In this document: positions 3,183 to 10,853 of the stretch, one piece after another
Layout of the letters: the number at the start of each line of letters is the position of its first letter
Position numbering within the stretch: position 1 is the stretch's first letter
Assembly (NCBI GenBank): GCA_030587475.2
Contig: JAUQYZ020000084.1
Span: forward strand, 1 to 16,586
Length of the DNA: 16,586 bases
DNA from: Candidatus Sigynarchaeum calidifontis
GTDB lineage: Archaea > Asgardarchaeota > Lokiarchaeia > Sigyniarchaeales > Sigyniarchaeaceae
Direction: 5' to 3'
Program-made: the position numbers and the translations under genes
Notes under the pieces: generated by a model
What the model was told of the DNA's origin: nothing
Database searches by the model: none
What the model saw: the letters and a program-made list of their open reading frames with translations, nothing else

Positions 3183-3980
3183 ATGGTGACTAAATTGGAA
3201 GGTACAAAGATAAAGAAGTGTTGTATGCTGAGCAATGGGGTTTCAACTGATGCGGTCGCGATCGTCGGCGTGGCCAATGCTGGCCTTGTCGGCGCCATTG
3301 CGGCAAGCCACATAATTGAGAAAATGAAGCTCGAGGAGGTCGCTCATATAAACTCCTCCATTTTTCCCCCAATTTCGGTATTCATCGACGGGGTCTTGAA
3401 GAATCCTTTTAGAATCTACGCGGACGTGAAGACTCTAGATGGAAAGATGAAGCAAGCCACGACCTTCGTGGTGACCACGGAGCTGCCCCTCAACAAGGAA
3501 ACCTATCACGAGATCGCCCATGTACTCGTCGATTACATCCAGGAAATAGGGATCAAGCAAATCGTAACACTTGTCGGATTTCCCGTTGAAGAAATGGACA
3601 CGATCGAGATATATTATGCCGCGGAACCGGTAATCTTGGAACGGCTTAAAAAGATACCGAGCATCCAGCCTTTGCCCAAGGGCATGATCTTTGGCATCGA
3701 GGCACTCGTACTCAACGAGGCACTCGAGCGTGAGATCGATGGTTTCACGCTCATCGCGCCCGTGAAGGAATACCTGCCCGCGACACGCAGCGCGGCCGCG
3801 CTCATCGAGGCACTGAACAAGATCTTCCCGTTCCTCAACGTGGAAGTCAAGGAATTGTTGATGCGCGATGACCAGCTGCAAGCCAAGCTCAAGGAACTCG
3901 CGGAACAAGTGCGGCGATCCCAAGTGGAAGAGTACACGCCACCGCCGCCATCGAAAAGCATGAACTCGCTCTTCACCTGA
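3183..3980 (+). CDS. Proteasome assembly chaperone (PAC2 / PbaA-PbaB family)
   Basis: GxxxxGLVGxIAAxHIIEK, FPPISVFxDG...PFRIY, IVTLVG, GxIxGxxALVL, PxxxSAAxLIE, followed by the typical C-terminal helix and a hydrophobic-aromatic-X terminus (LFT). Confidence 0.88.
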   Translation: MVTKLEGTKIKKCCMLSNGVSTDAVAIVGVANAGLVGAIAASHIIEKMKLEEVAHINSSIFPPISVFIDGVLKNPFRIYADVKTLDGKMKQATTFVVTTELPLNKETYHEIAHVLVDYIQEIGIKQIVTLVGFPVEEMDTIEIYYAAEPVILERLKKIPSIQPLPKGMIFGIEALVLNEALEREIDGFTLIAPVKEYLPATRSAAALIEALNKIFPFLNVEVKELLMRDDQLQAKLKELAEQVRRSQVEEYTPPPPSKSMNSLFT

Positions 3981-4115: not shown

Positions 4116-4508
4116 TCAATCTTGCCTCGGGTAGGTCTTGGCGATTTCCTTCGCGTAGTAACGGAAGACCGAGACGATCTTACCCATGTCGCTCAGCTTG
4201 TTGCTGGCACCAACGAGAAAAAAGCGCCCCGCGTCGGAGAGTACAAGGAACGCGTTCCCGCCGCGTAACACGAGCTCGAGCAGTTGCTTGTAACCGATCC
4301 GGTCTATGGCTTGGGTGCCAGCTTGGAGCAACACGGCAGCCATCGAGCAGAGCATGTCCGGTTGCAACTGCGTGCCGGGGATTGCCGAAAAAGCAAGGCG
4401 ATCGCCGACACGACTCACGAGGGCGAGTGCTTCCAGCTCCGTATGCGCGATTATCTGCCCCAGGTATTGCGCGAGATTATTAGCCTCATCCTCTGTTAAC
4501 TCGTTCAA
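4116..4508 (-). CDS. Roadblock/LC7 (MglB/LAMTOR2-like) domain protein
   Basis: 130 aa with the roadblock pattern: helix, ALVSRVG beta pair, D.LCSMAAVLL..G helix, ELVLRGGNAFLVL strands and C-terminal helix. TTG start; an in-frame TAG five codons upstream limits any extension. Confidence 0.85.
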   Translation of the reverse strand: MNELTEDEANNLAQYLGQIIAHTELEALALVSRVGDRLAFSAIPGTQLQPDMLCSMAAVLLQAGTQAIDRIGYKQLLELVLRGGNAFLVLSDAGRFFLVGASNKLSDMGKIVSVFRYYAKEIAKTYPRQD

Positions 4509-4564
4509 GCGTGCATCATCCTAAAGGGTATGTTATCGAGCGACCTACTATCTATCATCTCGCT

Positions 4565-4630
4565 ACAGATTTAAAAAACTAATCTGTCTATTGTTTTTGT
4601 ACTGAAGAGGGGAAACCTAAAACAAGGTTT
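4565..4630. promoter_or_regulatory. Divergent promoter region (roadblock / Sm) with two inverted repeats
   Basis: ACAGATT-N9-AATCTGT (4565-4587) spans a TTTTTAAA box on the minus strand; AAACCT-N6-AGGTTT (4613-4630) runs into TTTTAAT on the plus strand. Confidence 0.35.
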
Positions 4631-4685
4631 TAATTCACACGATCCTACACTCCACTATCCAATTTCCTCTATCTGGGATTTTTCA

Positions 4686-5297
4686 ATGCGACCGCTCGAC
4701 TTGTTAGGGCTTAATTTGAACCGCGCCGTGACCATCCAGATCAAGAGAAACCAGCGCTACGTGGGGACACTCACCGGATTTGATGAGCACTTGAACATGT
4801 ACCTGGAGAACGTGAAAAACGAGTATTTCGAGGTACCCGAGGAGGAAGAGCTAGAAGAAGATGATGACGATTCCCTCAAGTCGTTGACTCCCGCCGACAA
4901 GCCTGAACCACGACAACCCCCCGCCGTGCCGGAAAAACACGAGGAAATGATCGGCAACATCATTTTACGAGGCGATAATGTTATCTTCTTGCGAATCGAC
5001 CGGCCGGTCTTTTTAGCCCGTCAACCGCAGAGAATTGGTTATGGCAAGCCTATACATGATGCAGGTGGCCGGCGCGATTACCCGCCCCGGCGTGACCAGG
5101 GTAGCCACGGGGGCCGGCGGGATTATCCCCCGCGGCGGGACGGTGGTGGCGGGCGTCGCGATTATCCACCCCGCCGCGAGGGAAGTGGTCATGGTGGTTC
5201 ACGGAGGGATGGGTCACCGAGACGTGATAACTGGCACGACGAGGGCGGCCCGCGCAAGCCGCAAGGAAAGCCCGCTCCCCGCCGTGAAAGAGAATAG
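4686..5297 (+). CDS. Sm/LSm-family RNA-binding protein (SmAP) with acidic loop insertion and Arg/Gly-rich repeat tail
   Basis: Sm1 motif RPLDLL...V.I.IK....Y.G.L.GFDEHLNMYLENV and Sm2 motif IGNIILRGDNVIFL; 203 aa versus about 75 aa for a typical SmAP1/2. Confidence 0.9.
   Translation: MRPLDLLGLNLNRAVTIQIKRNQRYVGTLTGFDEHLNMYLENVKNEYFEVPEEEELEEDDDDSLKSLTPADKPEPRQPPAVPEKHEEMIGNIILRGDNVIFLRIDRPVFLARQPQRIGYGKPIHDAGGRRDYPPRRDQGSHGGRRDYPPRRDGGGGRRDYPPRREGSGHGGSRRDGSPRRDNWHDEGGPRKPQGKPAPRRERE
5064..5228 (+). repeat. Coding repeat: three copies of GGRRDYPPRR(D/E) plus one degenerate copy (GSRRDGSPRRD)
   Basis: Copies start at 5064, 5109 and 5148; the degenerate copy starts near 5196. The nucleotide copies differ mostly at synonymous positions. 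Confidence 0.9.
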
Positions 5298-5302
5298 GCG
5301 CA

Positions 5303-7084
5303 TCACTTGCCACGCGCGTTCTTTGTCGCGATAGCTTTCTGCAGTAATTGTATTTCCTTCCGTGACACTTGTGCCCAGCGGAACGAGTTCTCGACCCGCG
5401 CCCGTGCATTTACCCGCATCGCCTCGTATAGCCTGGGGTTCTTGATCACCGCCCGCTTCAGCCGGGAATCCAAGATATTTACGGCTATCGAGGGGTCGTT
5501 CGCCTCGCAAGCATCGATCGCCCGGGCCATGTCGACGATTGCACCAGCGAGCTCTTCAGGGTTTTCTTTCTCGACGAGCAAGCCGGTTCCTTGAATATCG
5601 TTCTCGCGGATGTCGATTATGGTTTCCTTGATACCCCCGACGCGGGCTCCGATGGCAGGCAAGCCAACCGCGTTGGCTTCGAGGATCATGATTCCAAAAG
5701 GCTCCCAGCGTGATGGCCCGATGTACAAGTCCGCAGCCACGTGCGCGAGCATGAAGATAGATGGTGCGTTTCCGAACACGTAACGCACGTGATCCCGCAC
5801 ATCGGGCTTGATAGCAAGATCTGCATAAATTTTAATCAAGGCTTTCTCCCCTTGGGTTGGTAAATTCAAGAGCAAGAAATTGAGATTTGGATATTCTGCG
5901 ATGGCACGCGGGACGGCATCCAGCAGCGTGTCAATGCCCTTTTGGCTGGACGTGCGTCCCGTGAGGAGGCAAAGCTTGCCATCCTCGGGGAAGCTCGTCA
6001 TCCTGCCGTCCCGCGTGTAGGGCGCGATCCCGTCGTATTCCTTGATGATTTTTAACAACTCTGGATCGTCGATAAAAGGTTCGCTGGCTGGCAAGTTGCC
6101 GATTTTACACGTCGAAAGGAACCGTCTTAACTCTTGCCTGGTTGCCGGTTTCTTGGGTTTGCGACCCGTGAACGATGCATATTCGCTGCTATTCGCCGTC
6201 CAAACGCCACGGACGATCTCGTCGTGATCCCAGTCACAGCCATTATATATGAAATCGGTCTTGCCATCGAGCAGGTCACCACCGCAACCAGGTATCACGT
6301 TTTCATTCAGGTATGTCTTGGACACGCTGGTCACGGTATCGGCCACGTACGCGGCCATGCGTTCCAGTTTGTACTTGCACGAGATCAAGAGGTCGGAGAT
6401 CCTGGACTCGGTCCTGCCACCCTTGATCGTGCACGGCAGTGGCGTGTCCGCGACGCCGCAGCAAGCCAGGTATTCCATGGTCACTTTCGGCCCGGTGAGC
6501 AAGTGGATGGTGAGGATCGTCGCCACGTCGGTGCCACGCTTGATGAGCTCCTGGCGCAATCCCAGTAGACCGGGTACCGCGTGATAATCGTGCACGTGCA
6601 CGACGTCTGGAATGTTACCGGCTTTGGCCTCTTGCACCATGAATTCCTTCAAGGCGCGAGAAAAAACGGCGATCTTCGCCCGCAAACCCGCCATGCTGTA
6701 GATAACCGGGTCTTCGAGGATCCGGCTAGTACGATCATCCCCGCCAGCGAAAGCCAGCACTCTCGCCTTTATGCCAGGCAAGGCTAGCTCGTGCAGTGAA
6801 ACCGTGACCCGCGCCTCGGGGGGATACCCATCGAGGAACCGGCTTGCCGGGTCGTCGACGATGCCCGCGAACCGCTGCATGTACCGCAAGTCGAAATCAA
6901 GTTTCCTGGATCCGAAATCCCCGCCGTTTTTTCCACGAATCAAGCCATGTGCAGGCATGAGAACCGTGATATCAAGGTCATCCCCGAGATGCTTGACCTG
7001 GTTCGTTGGCACCTCGCCAAGCCCGCCGAGCTTGGCCGGCCCGAACTCGAACGTCATTATCCACAGCTTGGACTTGATAGCCAT
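5303..7084 (-). CDS. glgA: Glycogen synthase (GT5 family, GT-B fold)
   Basis: KLGGLG (KxGGL nucleotide-sugar motif) near the N-terminus, PDVVHVHDYH, VTSVSKTY, IYNG, GRxxxQKG.D and PSRWEPFGIMILEA. Confidence 0.85.
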   Translation of the reverse strand: MAIKSKLWIMTFEFGPAKLGGLGEVPTNQVKHLGDDLDITVLMPAHGLIRGKNGGDFGSRKLDFDLRYMQRFAGIVDDPASRFLDGYPPEARVTVSLHELALPGIKARVLAFAGGDDRTSRILEDPVIYSMAGLRAKIAVFSRALKEFMVQEAKAGNIPDVVHVHDYHAVPGLLGLRQELIKRGTDVATILTIHLLTGPKVTMEYLACCGVADTPLPCTIKGGRTESRISDLLISCKYKLERMAAYVADTVTSVSKTYLNENVIPGCGGDLLDGKTDFIYNGCDWDHDEIVRGVWTANSSEYASFTGRKPKKPATRQELRRFLSTCKIGNLPASEPFIDDPELLKIIKEYDGIAPYTRDGRMTSFPEDGKLCLLTGRTSSQKGIDTLLDAVPRAIAEYPNLNFLLLNLPTQGEKALIKIYADLAIKPDVRDHVRYVFGNAPSIFMLAHVAADLYIGPSRWEPFGIMILEANAVGLPAIGARVGGIKETIIDIRENDIQGTGLLVEKENPEELAGAIVDMARAIDACEANDPSIAVNILDSRLKRAVIKNPRLYEAMRVNARARVENSFRWAQVSRKEIQLLQKAIATKNARGK

Positions 7085-7195
7085 GCGCGCTAGAAAGGTT
7101 GCCGTTTTTCAAACGTTACCAAAAGCAAACCCGCTCGGCAAAGATGTATATCAAGGGTGATTGTTTTTTAGTCTCCAAACAAGAATCGATGGTTG

Positions 7196-8692
7196 ATGAC
7201 GATGGACGCGCTGCAATACTCAAGGAACCGGGGTTTATTCACCGACTATTACCAGTTCACCATGGCACAAGGTTATTTCGAGCTCGGCATGCAAAGCAAG
7301 GTCGCCACGTTCGACTTGTTCTTCCGGAACAACCCGTTTGGAGGGGGCTATGCCGTCGCCGCGGGCATCGGCCCGGCCCTTGACTATGTCGAGCGGCTGC
7401 GGTTTGACGACGTGGATCTCGGGTACTTGGAAGGGTGCGGGGTCTTTTCAGATGCCTTCCTAGGTTATCTTCGGGGTTTCAAGTTCACCGGTTCCATCCA
7501 AGGCGTGCCAGAAGGCACGGTCGTGTTTCCACACGAGCCTATCTTGCAAGTCGAAGCACCGATAATCGAGGCACAGATCATTGAGACCGGGCTCTTGAAT
7601 ATCATCAATTATTCGACCCTTGTTGCGACAAAGACATCAAGAATATGCATGGCGGCACGTCCATCTAGCGTCGTCGACTTCGGTCTCCGTAGAGCGCAAG
7701 GTGATGGTGCATATCTCGGGACTCGAGCCTCCATTATTGGTGGCGCGTCTGGCACGTCGTTCGTGGACGCGGCACGGTTGCTCGGGGTGCCGGCCATCGG
7801 GACACACGCGCACTCGTGGGTCCAGCTTTTCCCGTCGGAACTCGACGCGTTCCGCGCCTATGCGAAGGTCTTCCCGTCGAGATGCATGCTGCTCCTCGAC
7901 ACGTACAACGTGCTTCGATCGGGCGTGCCGAACGCGATCACGGTAGCCAAGGAATTGAAAGCAGCAGGGAAGGATATATTGGGTGTACGTATCGATTCGG
8001 GAGATCTGGCTTATCTAGCCGTCGAGACCTACCGGGCTTTTAAAAAAGCTGGTTTTCCTGGCATTAAGATCGTGCTATCTAACGATCTCGATGAATTTCT
8101 CATTGAAAGCATCGCGCGGCAGATCGAGGCACCGCTCGGCTCTCCCAGCGCGGCCGAGAAAAAGCTCCGGAAGGAAGTGGTCGAGCACATCACGTACGGG
8201 GTCGGGACGAAGCTCATAACTGGCGGAGAACAAGCAGCGCTCGGCGGCGTTTACAAGCTCGTTGCCGTCGATGGAAAACCGTGTATCAAGGTAAGTGAGA
8301 ACGTGACGAAGATCATCGATCCCGGGGTCAAGGCATTGTACCGTTTTTCGGATAAGAAGAATTCAATGCTTGCTGCTGACGTGATAGCCTTTTATAACGA
8401 GCCAGCACCGTTACCTGGCGACACGGCCTATATCCCGCTCGAGGAGGGCAAGAAGTTCGTCATCGATACCAACACGACTCGCGAGTGTCTCCTCAAGCCG
8501 CTTATCACCAAAGGGCGCCGGGTCGCGGGCGTTGATGATACGGGCATCGAAACGGGCAAGGAAAGGTGCAAGGATCAGCTCGCCCGCCTGCATCCGGCGA
8601 GCCGGCGTTTCCTCAATCCCCAACCGTACAACGTGGGCTTGTCATGCCAGCTATTCTCGCTGCGACGGGATTTGATCTCCCGCTATGGCTGA
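7196..8692 (+). CDS. pncB: Nicotinate phosphoribosyltransferase
   Basis: LFTDYYQFTM, DFGLRRAQG, GTHAHS (phospho-His), LLDTY, GVRIDSGD, SNDLDE, GVGT and GGVYKLV. Start could be 7193 (TTG), 7196 or 7202 (ATG). Confidence 0.95.
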   Translation: MTMDALQYSRNRGLFTDYYQFTMAQGYFELGMQSKVATFDLFFRNNPFGGGYAVAAGIGPALDYVERLRFDDVDLGYLEGCGVFSDAFLGYLRGFKFTGSIQGVPEGTVVFPHEPILQVEAPIIEAQIIETGLLNIINYSTLVATKTSRICMAARPSSVVDFGLRRAQGDGAYLGTRASIIGGASGTSFVDAARLLGVPAIGTHAHSWVQLFPSELDAFRAYAKVFPSRCMLLLDTYNVLRSGVPNAITVAKELKAAGKDILGVRIDSGDLAYLAVETYRAFKKAGFPGIKIVLSNDLDEFLIESIARQIEAPLGSPSAAEKKLRKEVVEHITYGVGTKLITGGEQAALGGVYKLVAVDGKPCIKVSENVTKIIDPGVKALYRFSDKKNSMLAADVIAFYNEPAPLPGDTAYIPLEEGKKFVIDTNTTRECLLKPLITKGRRVAGVDDTGIETGKERCKDQLARLHPASRRFLNPQPYNVGLSCQLFSLRRDLISRYG

Positions 8693-8753
8693 TGCCTTAT
8701 TTATCCGGATGTTGAACTGACTAGCGGCACTTCTCGAGAACCGATGACGAGCC

Positions 8754-8960
8754 ATGAAACCAAAGCCATGCAAGACGTGCAACAAGGTCCAGGGCGATGC
8801 TGAACTAGCAAAATCGCTGTATTGCTTCTCGTGCGATGCTCTCTTCTGTCCTTCCTGCATCAAGCGGCAAGTCCGCATGGATGCCGGCAAGTGGTTGTGC
8901 CCGTTCTGTCGCCAATGGTGGAGCGTAGAATCATCCACCCTGGTCCGCGAAAAAAATTAA
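8754..8960 (+). CDS. Small 8-Cys cross-brace zinc finger protein (RING/PHD/FYVE-like, C4C4)
   Basis: C-x2-C-x14-C-x2-C-x4-C-x2-C-x13-C-x2-C ending in WLCPFCR; ATG start; fills the pncB-afpA gap without overlapping either gene. Confidence 0.8.
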   Translation: MKPKPCKTCNKVQGDAELAKSLYCFSCDALFCPSCIKRQVRMDAGKWLCPFCRQWWSVESSTLVREKN

Positions 8961-8966
8961 GAAATT

Positions 8967-9527
8967 TCACGAGCCGCGCAGTTTCTCGAGCGTCGCGGCC
9001 ATTTCCTCTATATTCTTGAATACTGTCACGTCGTCCATGGCACGCACCTTTTCGAGGTTATCGAGATCGACCTTGCGAGGGTAAAGCTTGAGCGTAGACC
9101 CGTCACGGAGCACGGTCTCGACCTCGGTGCCCTGGTCGGTCGGGTACAAGTAGACGGGGACGCGCGCCTTGAGCCCGAGGGAGACGCAGTTGCTCACGAG
9201 GGAGTCCGCGATGCCACAAGCGATCTTGGCCATCGTGTTCGCGGTCACCGGGGCGACAAGGATGAAGGCATATCTCTTCCGCTGGATCTGGCCGCCCAGG
9301 AACGGCGTGTTGGGTCCTTTTTCTTCCATCACCTTTGAAAAATGATCCTTGAGGACTTTCCAGCAATCGTAGTACTTTAGCACGAAGGGAGCCTCGCGCG
9401 ACAATGCGACCTCGATGTCCCACGCGTGCCACGACTGCACCTCGATCATAAGGTCAATTGTCTCGCGGAGCTTGTCACCCGAGGACGTTATGCACCAAAG
9501 GATCTTTCGTCGGGCTCCAGCACTCAT
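8967..9527 (-). CDS. afpA: Archaeoflavoprotein AfpA (HFCD-superfamily FMN protein)
   Basis: ILWCITSSGDKL.ET, VLKYY, PNTPFLGGQIQ, APVTANTMAKIACGIADSLVSN, VPVYLYPTDQ and R.VDLDN.EK match the AfpA pattern. Confidence 0.88.
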   Translation of the reverse strand: MSAGARRKILWCITSSGDKLRETIDLMIEVQSWHAWDIEVALSREAPFVLKYYDCWKVLKDHFSKVMEEKGPNTPFLGGQIQRKRYAFILVAPVTANTMAKIACGIADSLVSNCVSLGLKARVPVYLYPTDQGTEVETVLRDGSTLKLYPRKVDLDNLEKVRAMDDVTVFKNIEEMAATLEKLRGS

Positions 9528-9671
9528 GGATCGTCATCTCGTTCAGAAATTCCGTGCACCGCGGGAGATTAAATCGGCCGTCACGGCATTACATGGTAAA
9601 TAACGAACAGATAATAAATCGTATTTCATCTAGCTATTTAAAAACAACAGAAATCACGACGCGTGAATTCG

Positions 9672-10853
9672 ATGGCAAAAAAAAGCGCGAAATCGAAGAG
9701 CACTTCGGAGAAAGCCGAAATGGAGCAGGTCGGCGAGCCAGAGGGGGTAAAGCCAGGAGATAACGCCGATAGCGAGGAGATCGACAGGGCATTCGAGGAA
9801 GCAATGAAGGCAGAGACATCGAGCGAGGAACCCGTCGAGAACGTGGAGGAGGACGTGGACATCGATGTCATGGCCGCGTTGGAGGCTGGTGGCGGGCATG
9901 TTGACGTTGATAGTCTCACGGTCAAGGATATTCCAGGTGTGGGCCCGAGCGTGGCAAAGAAGCTCATCGACAGCGGGTTCAAGAACATCAGGGCAATCGC
10001 CACGCTCCCACCCAAGACTTTGATGCAGGAGAGCGGCATCGGCGACAAGACAGCGGAGAAAATCGTCAGGGCAGCACAAGAGCTTTGCAAGATGGAGTTC
10101 ACCACGGCCGATGTCGTGTTCGAGAAACGCAAGAATCTCGGACGCATCGTGACGAGCAGCAACGCACTAAACGAGATCCTCGGCGGGGGCATAGAGACGG
10201 GTGCCATCACGGAGCTGGTCGGCGAGTTCCGCACGGGCAAGACCCAGATCGCGCACCAGTGTTGCGTCAACGTGCAACTCCCGGTGGACCAGGGCGGGCT
10301 CGGGGGAAAGGCCTTGTACGTGGACACCGAGGGGACGTTCCGGCCGGAGCGGCTCGCGAAGATGGCCATGGCCAAGGGTATGGACGTGAAGGAAGCCCTC
10401 AAGAACGTGATATACGCGCGGGCATACAATAGTGAACACCAGATCAATATCTTGAGGCAAGCACGAAAGATCATCGAGACCCAAAATGTCAAGCTCATCG
10501 TGATCGACTCGTTGATTAGCCACTTCCGCGGCGAGTATTTCGGGCTCGGTTCGCTCGGCCCGCGCCAGCAGCTGTTAAACATGCACATCCACCAGATCAT
10601 GCAGCTCTGCGACACGTACATGATCGCCGCGATCGTCACGAACCAGGTCCAGGCCAAGCCCGACGTGTTCTTCGGCAATCCCATCGTGCCCGCTGGCGGG
10701 AACATCATCGCGCACGGCAGCACGTATCGGGTCTATCTCCGGAAGGGAAAAGGTGACACGCGCGTGGCCAAGGTCATCGACGCACCTGGACTACCCGAGT
10801 CGGAAGCCGTGTTCAAGATCAGCGACAAGGGCATCGAGGACGCGGAAGCCTGA
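9672..10853 (+). CDS. radA: DNA repair and recombination protein RadA, with long acidic N-terminal extension
   Basis: HhH motif DIPGVG, polymerisation motif FTTA, Walker A GEFRTGKT, YVDTEGTFRPER, Walker B LIVIDS and L2 region NQVQAKPD...GGNIIAH. ATG at 9672 preferred over GTG at 9663. Confidence 0.95.
   Translation: MAKKSAKSKSTSEKAEMEQVGEPEGVKPGDNADSEEIDRAFEEAMKAETSSEEPVENVEEDVDIDVMAALEAGGGHVDVDSLTVKDIPGVGPSVAKKLIDSGFKNIRAIATLPPKTLMQESGIGDKTAEKIVRAAQELCKMEFTTADVVFEKRKNLGRIVTSSNALNEILGGGIETGAITELVGEFRTGKTQIAHQCCVNVQLPVDQGGLGGKALYVDTEGTFRPERLAKMAMAKGMDVKEALKNVIYARAYNSEHQINILRQARKIIETQNVKLIVIDSLISHFRGEYFGLGSLGPRQQLLNMHIHQIMQLCDTYMIAAIVTNQVQAKPDVFFGNPIVPAGGNIIAHGSTYRVYLRKGKGDTRVAKVIDAPGLPESEAVFKISDKGIEDAEA

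Follow-up and report, generated by a model that had tools for sequence, protein, structure and literature searches.

RING, PHD and FYVE fingers are characteristic modules of eukaryotic signalling, and their prokaryotic roots are being traced in Asgard archaea. Binuclear treble-clef/RING families of prokaryotes (Pfam Prok-RING_1 and others) were reportedly described by Burroughs, Iyer and Aravind in 2011. Among eukaryotic fingers, the C4C4 RING of NOT4/CNOT4 (zf-RING_4, PF14570; PDB 1e4u, 1ur6 and 5aie) has eight ligands, all of them cysteines, and is the N-terminal domain of a large protein. Its structure has been solved in complex with an E2 enzyme (1ur6, 5aie). The FYVE_2 fingers (PF02318) include those of rabphilin, Slp4, melanophilin and RIM (5x6t, 2csz, 2zet and 2a20), and in such Rab effectors the finger is embedded between long helices. 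PHD fingers (PF00628), such as those of KAT6A, BRD1 and KMT2D, are built on a C-x2-C-x4-[H/C]-x2-C core and a W-x-C-x2-C ending.

In archaea, an Asgard cascade of E1, E2 and RING E3 has been reconstituted and is active in vitro (bioRxiv 10.1101/2023.07.25.550441). A small RING finger E3 termed srfp belongs to archaeal ubiquitin operons, in Caldiarchaeum and Asgard (cited in bioRxiv 10.1101/2023.07.25.550441 and its reference 42). Reader domains such as PHD are regarded as eukaryotic innovations in a study of chromatin evolution (10.1101/2021.11.30.470311). The RING fold class is already known, as are RING-type fingers and E1/E2/E3 cascades in Asgard archaea. What is new in the locus described here is a distinct and unnamed family, restricted to one order, that consists of a bare C4C4 finger and a conserved tail. 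One of its genes lies in the window, which is the whole stretch of 16,586 nucleotides from Candidatus Sigynarchaeum calidifontis that was analysed.

The gene, its relatives and its neighbours

The gene occupies positions 8754-8960 of the window on the forward strand and encodes a protein of 68 amino acids, from an ATG to a TAA stop codon at 8958-8960. Its translation places cysteines at residues 6, 9, 24, 27, 32, 35, 49 and 52, which gives the ligand spacing C-x2-C-x14-C-x2-C-x4-C-x2-C-x13-C-x2-C, or four pairs in an arrangement compatible with RING fingers. A tryptophan, W47, lies two residues N-terminal to C49, and an arginine, R53, directly follows C52. The eight-cysteine spacing, W47 and R53 had all been read correctly in the initial annotation, as each is exact in the translation, and the cysteine pattern together with W47 is far beyond chance. 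The same annotation had considered the gene small enough for pipelines to miss. However, NCBI and JGI already list the protein as a "hypothetical protein", which means that gene calling does pick it up.

A six-frame search found open frames of 64-90 amino acids with the same cysteine pattern in most of 41 related genomes, and 27 loci were retrieved for the definition of start codons. When 400 genomes from the phylum were searched with the family profile, orthologues of 61-72 amino acids were found in about 125 of the 154 genomes of one Asgard order. They occur in four taxonomic families of this order, here termed f1 to f4, of which f1 contains the window's genus: all 3 genomes of f1, 3 of 14 in f2, the single genome of f3, and 117 of 135 in f4. 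Matches within these families have E-values of 1e-15 to 1e-31, while the best profile matches elsewhere in the 400 genomes are at 1e-5 or worse and lie inside proteins of 300-1700 amino acids, leaving a gap between 1e-15 and 1e-5 that separates the finger family from all else. A set of 1.8 billion representative proteins yields only about 17 family clusters at 50% identity, all of them with 53-72 amino acids. The carriers are labelled Promethearchaeota, Lokiarchaeota or Sigynarchaeum, and the cluster for the window's genus includes "Candidatus Sigynarchaeum springense". The finger family is limited to a single order of Asgard archaea of the Lokiarchaeia type.

The initial annotation had made its reading depend on the existence of homologues and on purifying selection. 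The former are the orthologues in about 125 genomes of the order, and the latter is seen in pairwise dN/dS values of 0.04-0.16 (Nei-Gojobori, ten pairs). The open frame of 68 amino acids is a genuine gene under strong purifying selection. Within its own genome, this frame reaches 73 bits against the family profile and the next one 16.6 bits, so the gene is single-copy there, and it is usually single-copy across carriers. Correspondingly low is its similarity to the other RING-like frames of the genome, none of which reaches significance, the 16.6 bits being the next best score. One of these frames, at G000:C209:4847-5062 on the reverse strand (G000 being the genome of the window), is a small RING-like frame of 72 amino acids with a zf-RING_2 E-value of 0.04 and 13.8 bits against the family profile. 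It might be the small RING finger protein that this genome encodes independently of an operon.

Upstream of the finger gene in the window lies a nicotinate phosphoribosyltransferase gene (NAPRTase, pncB; 7193-8692, forward strand), and the finger gene begins 61 nucleotides downstream of it. A gene similar to starch/glycogen synthase (5303-7084, reverse strand) precedes NAPRTase. Downstream, a PF02441 flavoprotein gene (8967-9527, reverse strand) is convergent with the finger gene and is followed by radA (9663-10853). The alignment of two upstream regions reveals a block of 19 nucleotides, GCTGATGCCTTATTTATCC, at 8689-8707 of the forward strand, which contains the NAPRTase stop codon as well as a TATA-like element, TTATTTAT, and is identical in the sister genome. 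The TATA-like element lies about 50 nucleotides upstream of the finger ATG, so that the block with this element is a candidate archaeal promoter. The identity of both in the sister genome suggests that the finger gene perhaps has its own promoter. A sigma-70 promoter scan was discounted, since such models do not apply to archaea.

In f1, the gene order is glgA, finger, flavoprotein, radA, Fer4 ferredoxin and a gene similar to FrhB. Only in the window's genus (G000 and G001, compared with L026 and L028) is NAPRTase inserted between glgA and the finger gene, and NAPRTase at 7193-8692 looks like a genus-level insertion. In the other two genera of f1, no gene separates glgA from the finger gene, and in G003 these neighbours are divergent, with about 60 nucleotides between them. 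A different order is found in f4, with a coiled-coil-like protein of 84 amino acids, the finger, a protein of 161 amino acids and a protein of 282 amino acids. These neighbours are conserved in f4 and have no Pfam match. At the example locus L010 they lie at 3395-3649, 4359-4844 and 4931-5779, the last two on the same strand, and their positions are unchanged in L006-L022. About the first 130 residues of the 282-residue protein have weak paralogues in the window's genome (G000: C192, C206 and C157), and this region appears roadblock/longin-like by eye. In f3, the finger gene is convergent with L027:4316-5299 (reverse strand), whose product of 327 amino acids carries an Arf-family GTPase domain at its C-terminus (Pfam Arf, E 5.7e-28) and is extended at the N-terminus by about 150 residues. 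The presence of such a GTPase next to the f3 orthologue fits an Asgard origin.

When the f1, f3 and f4 loci are compared, no neighbouring gene is conserved across the order. Synteny was therefore dropped as functional evidence. The linkage to pncB and to the flavoprotein gene, which the initial annotation had suggested checking, extends to one genus for the former and to one family for the latter, the flavoprotein gene being lost as a neighbour in the largest family.

Nor does the finger gene adjoin genes of the ubiquitin system at any of the loci compared across families. The same genome does contain a ubiquitin cluster, at G000:C26 (L031:200-2861), which encodes a ThiF-type E1 of 409 amino acids (L031:200-1429), a UBC-type E2 of 175 amino acids (L031:1483-2007), and a JAB/MPN-like protein of 297 amino acids that overlaps the E2 stop codon and was identified by eye from its sequence motif. 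A weak RING match is present after this cluster, in a frame of 379 amino acids at C26:9472-9612. The genome has a second E2 at G000:C42. Across the order, E2 is encoded in 152 of 154 genomes with or without the finger; in f2, E2 is found in 14 of 14 genomes and the finger in 3 of 14. Since E2 is equally present in genomes that lack the finger, its co-occurrence is uninformative for an E3 role. A six-frame search of the window's genome also found frames that pass the PHD or zf-RING_2 cut-offs, at C86:48313-48456, C63:27302-27433, C97:61414-61539, C138:1794-1925 and C142:1245-1403 of G000. These fingers lie within frames of 346-744 amino acids, which means that the repertoire of cross-brace fingers in this genome is sizeable.

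Conserved residues and resemblance to known fingers

Conservation was counted in an alignment of 30 diverse family members. Residues C6, C9, Y23, C24, C32, C35, W47, C49 and C52 are invariant (30/30), and C27 is kept in 29, P50 in 28 and D28 in 27 of the 30. The first zinc knuckle, C6-K-T-C9 (8769-8780), is ligand pair 1, both of whose cysteines are among the invariant residues. Pair 2 lies in Y23-C24-F-S-C27-D28 (8820-8837), a segment that can be aligned to the NOT4 RING. Pair 3, C32-P-S-C35, opens a predicted helix that extends over residues 33-39 or 33-40 in both structural models (8847-8873 with the helix). Pair 4 lies in W47-L-C49-P50-F-C52 (8892-8909), and the C-terminal tail, S61-T-L63-V64-R65, is encoded at 8934-8948, all on the forward strand.

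In most members, including those of the large family f4, pair 2 reads Y-C-x-C-D, which is the C-x-C spacing of the NOT4 type. A one-residue insertion converts this pair to CxxC in the window's genus and in a minority of others, including the rest of f1, and as a result the finger of the window's genus looks PHD/FYVE_2-like. The aspartate D28 was considered as a metal ligand and rejected, because this residue is glycine, asparagine or glutamate in three members. The f3 orthologue (L027:3977-4189, forward strand) is the sole member with seven cysteines; it has an aspartate at the fourth ligand, with Y-C-L-T-D-D in place of Y-C-F-S-C-D, and its sequence may form a Cys3Asp zinc site.

The arginine after the last cysteine had been described as a RING-type "linchpin". 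In the 30 members, this column contains lysine in 10, asparagine in 6, histidine in 5, glycine in 4, arginine in 2, and serine, glutamine and glutamate in 1 each. Arginine is confined to the window's genus, and R53 is not a feature of the family. The tail is much more uniform, with the consensus [ST]-x-L-[FI]-[RK] at 2-4 residues from the C-terminus: serine or threonine in 28 members, leucine in 29, a hydrophobic residue in all 30, and arginine or lysine in all 30. The models assign lower confidence to the tail region (pLDDT blocks of 63 and 71 in the two). By its column counts, the [ST]xL[FI][RK] tail is a signature peculiar to the family. The net charge of the members varies between -5 and +6 and has no conserved character, and nucleic-acid binding by charge was rejected.

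No member that was scanned reaches the gathering score of any Pfam model. The best match of the window's protein is to PHD, with 19.9 bits against a cut-off of 24 (E 7.7e-4, model positions 1-47 of 47), followed by zf-ANAPC11 and other RING models, all below threshold. Among the 30 members, the most frequent sub-threshold matches are to zf-RING_4 (13 members at E 0.01 or better, best E 5e-6), FYVE_2 (13 members, best E 2.5e-5), FYVE (7 members) and PHD (6 members). The best zf-RING_4 score in the members scanned is 24.3 bits, below its gathering cut-off of 27, and the best FYVE_2 score is 24.9 bits, below 27.2. The window's own protein is not among the zf-RING_4 matches. As for PHD, the histidine that defines ligand position 5 is absent, being replaced by the invariant C32, while the PHD-type tryptophan two residues before the seventh ligand is present as W47 in all 30 members.

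When the family profile was compared with all PDB sequences, the top matches were the FYVE_2 fingers of Slp4 (E 4.9e-5), melanophilin and RIM2. Further leading matches are PHD fingers, those of BRD1, KMT2D and KAT6A, and the C4C4 RING of NOT4 (8e-4), so that all of these come from cross-brace families. The initial annotation had proposed a mixed resemblance to RING, PHD and rabphilin-type fingers, and this is borne out both by the sub-threshold Pfam matches and by the profile matches to the same classes. Its further likening of the finger to the ADD domain of ATRX/DNMT3 found no counterpart, since no such chain is among the best 60 of 144 PDB profile matches. To say that the protein carries "both RING and PHD features" is a fair description, as the family sits between the curated models.

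Predicted fold and competing explanations

Two AlphaFold2 models were built with the family alignment, one for the window's protein and one for an f4 member of a different subfamily (pLDDT 83.2 and 83.8, respectively). In each, two short strands precede pairs 2 and 3, a helix (residues 33-39) begins at pair 3, and pair 4 lies between a hairpin and one more strand. Neither has a helix that is longer than seven residues or that flanks the finger. The models were compared with 48,161 chains by VIA-align, in which, by the tool's own warning, Z-scores below 8 are common. RING domains rank first for both models (values for the window's protein/f4 model): the Slx1 RING with Z 6.3/5.9 over 61/59 residues at rmsd 2.8/2.5, the Nse1 RING with Z 5.2/5.5, and the CTLH RING with Z 5.7/5.0. 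The RING alignments span 52-61 of 66-68 residues with rmsd 2.5-3.3, and about 40 of the best 50 neighbours of both models are RING or U-box domains. The remaining neighbours include the atypical PHD of VIN3 (Z 5.3/4.8), a few ZZ domains and CNOT4 (Z 3.8/3.6), and FYVE domains rank low. The best Foldseek matches are the RINGs of TRIM23 and TRIM2 (E 0.015-0.05, probability up to 0.99), with no match at E 1e-3 or better for either model. Modest structural scores are expected for a domain of 68 residues.

From these models, it is highly probable that the finger is a two-zinc cross-brace of the RING superfamily, the pairing of ligands being taken from the RING resemblance of models that are free of metal. 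This is put as highly probable rather than as shown because the Z- and E-values are modest and the models metal-free. Zinc site 1 would be formed by C6/C9 and C32/C35 (pairs 1 and 3), and zinc site 2 by C24/C27 and C49/C52 (pairs 2 and 4), around a predicted beta-beta-alpha core whose helix begins at C32.

Catalytic residues and a second domain are both absent from the protein, which for this reason is most likely a protein-docking module. We regard it as somewhat more likely than not that a separately transcribed gene produces one binuclear RING-type finger with a tail, which acts as such a module. The leading specific guess is a minimal E3-like cofactor. As such, the finger would bind a UBC-type E2 of its own genome by way of the usual RING surface, made up of the residue after C1+1, the helix hydrophobics I36 and V40, and P50, and would use the conserved tail to dimerise or to bind a partner. 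Such a role is biologically possible in view of the Asgard cascade reconstituted in vitro (10.1101/2023.07.25.550441). Of the columns of this surface, the second position after C1 is isoleucine, valine or leucine in 21 of the 30 members, I36 is hydrophobic in 26 and V40 in 29, and P50 is kept in 28; all of them also have a structural part. In the window's protein, as in its genus, K7-T8 takes the place of a hydrophobic residue between C6 and C9. Arginine or lysine after the last ligand, in the linchpin position, is not conserved among the 30 members. The linchpin is dispensable in some active RINGs. An E2-docking mini-E3 or cofactor is a tentative guess, albeit the leading specific one and ahead of a PHD/FYVE_2-like adaptor. 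Against the E3-like explanation stands the invariant tryptophan, which in terms of sequence is a PHD/FYVE_2 trait, as well as the fact that the best PDB profile match is to a FYVE_2 finger and not to a RING.

These same observations would be explained if the cross-brace fold served as a PHD/FYVE_2-like reader or adaptor, a bridging subunit with no role in ubiquitin transfer, whose target might be a peptide, a protein tail (for example, the Lys-rich tails of Lokiarchaeal histones) or the effector surface of a small GTPase. PHD is the top Pfam match of the window's protein and covers all 47 model positions, the profile prefers the FYVE_2 fingers of Slp4, melanophilin and RIM2 and the PHD fingers of BRD1 and KAT6A, and W47 never varies. 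In addition, the C-x2-C-x4-C-x2-C of the window's genus is the core spacing of PHD and FYVE_2, the linchpin column is variable, and VIN3 is among the structural neighbours. However, the PHD score stays below its cut-off and only 6 of 30 members match that model, while most of the family has the NOT4-type C-x-C spacing. A seven-residue helix that directly follows pair 3, like that of RING domains, and the dominance of RING and U-box domains among the best 50 neighbours also speak against a reader or adaptor, as do the absence of the long flanking helices of FYVE_2 and of any identifiable aromatic-cage positions. The central helix at 33-39 and the structural neighbours make the models lean towards RING over PHD. 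Moreover, with PHD regarded as a eukaryotic innovation (10.1101/2021.11.30.470311), a true PHD reader is the less expected reading. For these reasons, a reader or adaptor without a part in ubiquitin transfer is considered unlikely.

HVO_2753-type proteins are a family of archaeal ribosome-associated zinc micro-proteins, and the finger could in principle be a comparable protein of purely structural function, a stoichiometric subunit of a machine associated with the ribosome, the polymerase or repair, in which the RING shape has no signalling meaning. Its high conservation, single copy, tiny size and lack of any other domain would suit such a subunit, and there is a weak likeness to zinc proteins of the archaeal ribosome (9fhl_a with Z 5.1/4.3 and rmsd 1.9-2.1; 9fhl_C and 9fny_A1 in the Foldseek list). 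The family profile, for its part, matches 9fhl_C at E 0.041 only. In f1, the gene is two genes from radA, and Slx1 and Nse1 are RINGs of repair complexes, although this is perhaps coincidence, and the linkage to radA is lost in f3 and f4. Subunits of core machines are seldom limited to one order, and a net charge of -5 to +6 gives no conserved nucleic-acid-binding character. Furthermore, the genome has a bona fide HVO_2753-type protein of its own (G000:C241:3554-3688, forward strand; PF07754, 67.4 bits, in a frame of 62 amino acids), and the finger has no match to that family, either at E 0.01 or better for the open frame or at E up to 10 in the Pfam scan of the window's protein. A purely structural role is thus improbable.

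A more elaborate version of the E3-like explanation borrows from well-studied dimeric RINGs. The tail appears to lie at a position like that of the hydrophobic C-terminal tail of dimeric RINGs of the IAP/MDM2/RNF4 type, about 11-12 residues past the last cysteine and 2-4 residues from the end of the protein. By analogy, the family might represent a dimeric RING E3 or E2 cofactor in minimal and self-contained form, which arose in this one order and whose tail would prime E2~Ub as in IAP, MDM2 and RNF4, an idea that we hold to be quite doubtful. When the last 43 residues of an f4 member were used as a query, no match covered the tail, and RNF4 is a neighbour at the level of the fold only (Z 3.8-4.1). 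An IAP/MDM2/RNF4-like tail was rejected as a candidate on these two grounds. Were a dimeric, tail-assisted RING E3 true, no smaller complete core of a ubiquitin ligase would be known, and tail-assisted activation of RINGs would predate eukaryotes.

LIM domains, too, have a short link between their fourth and fifth ligands. Two sequential knuckles or ribbons (pairs 1+2 and 3+4) in a LIM- or double-zinc-ribbon-like protein, an arrangement that the initial annotation had set against the cross-brace, are very improbable: the spacing alone is compatible with them, the models are metal-free and a few of the 30 members weakly match DZR, Zn_ribbon_RanBP or rubredoxin-like models, but both models are RING-like and not double-ribbon (Z 5-6.3) over nearly their whole length, LIM and double-zinc-ribbon chains are absent from the best 50 neighbours of either, and the profile matches are nearly all to cross-brace families.

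Relation to described systems

The finger family leaves the known picture unchanged, to which it adds a very small member that combines the RING spacing of the NOT4 type with the tryptophan of PHD and FYVE_2. At 7.5 kDa, the finger is well suited to studying which role such modules played before they became part of large eukaryotic proteins. It also raises the question of whether several free-standing RING partners serve the Asgard E2 enzymes.

Like the families attributed to Burroughs and colleagues, the finger is a RING-like domain that stands alone or in a simple architecture in a prokaryote. Prok-RING_1 is weakly matched by 3 of the 30 members (best E 9e-4, below significance), and the ligand spacing and the tail differ from those of the Prok-RING families. 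Both srfp and the finger family are small archaeal RING-type proteins of organisms with an E1/E2 cascade. Unlike srfp, the finger family is never found in a ubiquitin operon at the loci compared, and it is confined to a single order.

PHD fingers, among them that of KAT6A, to which the window's protein can be aligned, share with the finger the C-x2-C-x4-[H/C]-x2-C core and the W-x-C-x2-C ending, and they differ in their defining histidine, in whose place the finger has cysteine, and in the RING-like helix predicted for the finger after pair 3. The FYVE_2 class, to which Slp4, the best PDB profile match, belongs, has the pattern C-x2-C-x13/14-C-x2-C-x4-C-x2-C...W-x-C-x2-C in common with the finger, including the tryptophan. 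Unlike FYVE_2 proteins, the finger is free of flanking Rab-binding helices, and the structural neighbours of its models are RINGs.

The NOT4 RING has an all-cysteine set of eight ligands like that of the finger family, and its spacing, C-x2-C-x13-C-x-C-x4-C-x2-C-x11/12-C-x2-C, is common to most family members. When an f4 member is aligned to the NOT4 RING (1e4u, 5aie), all eight cysteines align with a single gap of one residue in the last loop. Both also have the C-P-x-C ending and the helix after pair 3, with a RING fold predicted for the finger. In contrast to NOT4, the finger stands alone, and pair 2 of the window's protein is CxxC where NOT4 has CxC. The family differs further from NOT4 in its additional invariant tryptophan at position -2 of pair 4 and in its [ST]xL[FI][RK] tail, and in W47-L-C49-P50-F-C52 the window's protein joins this PHD/FYVE_2-like tryptophan with the C-P-x-C of a RING.
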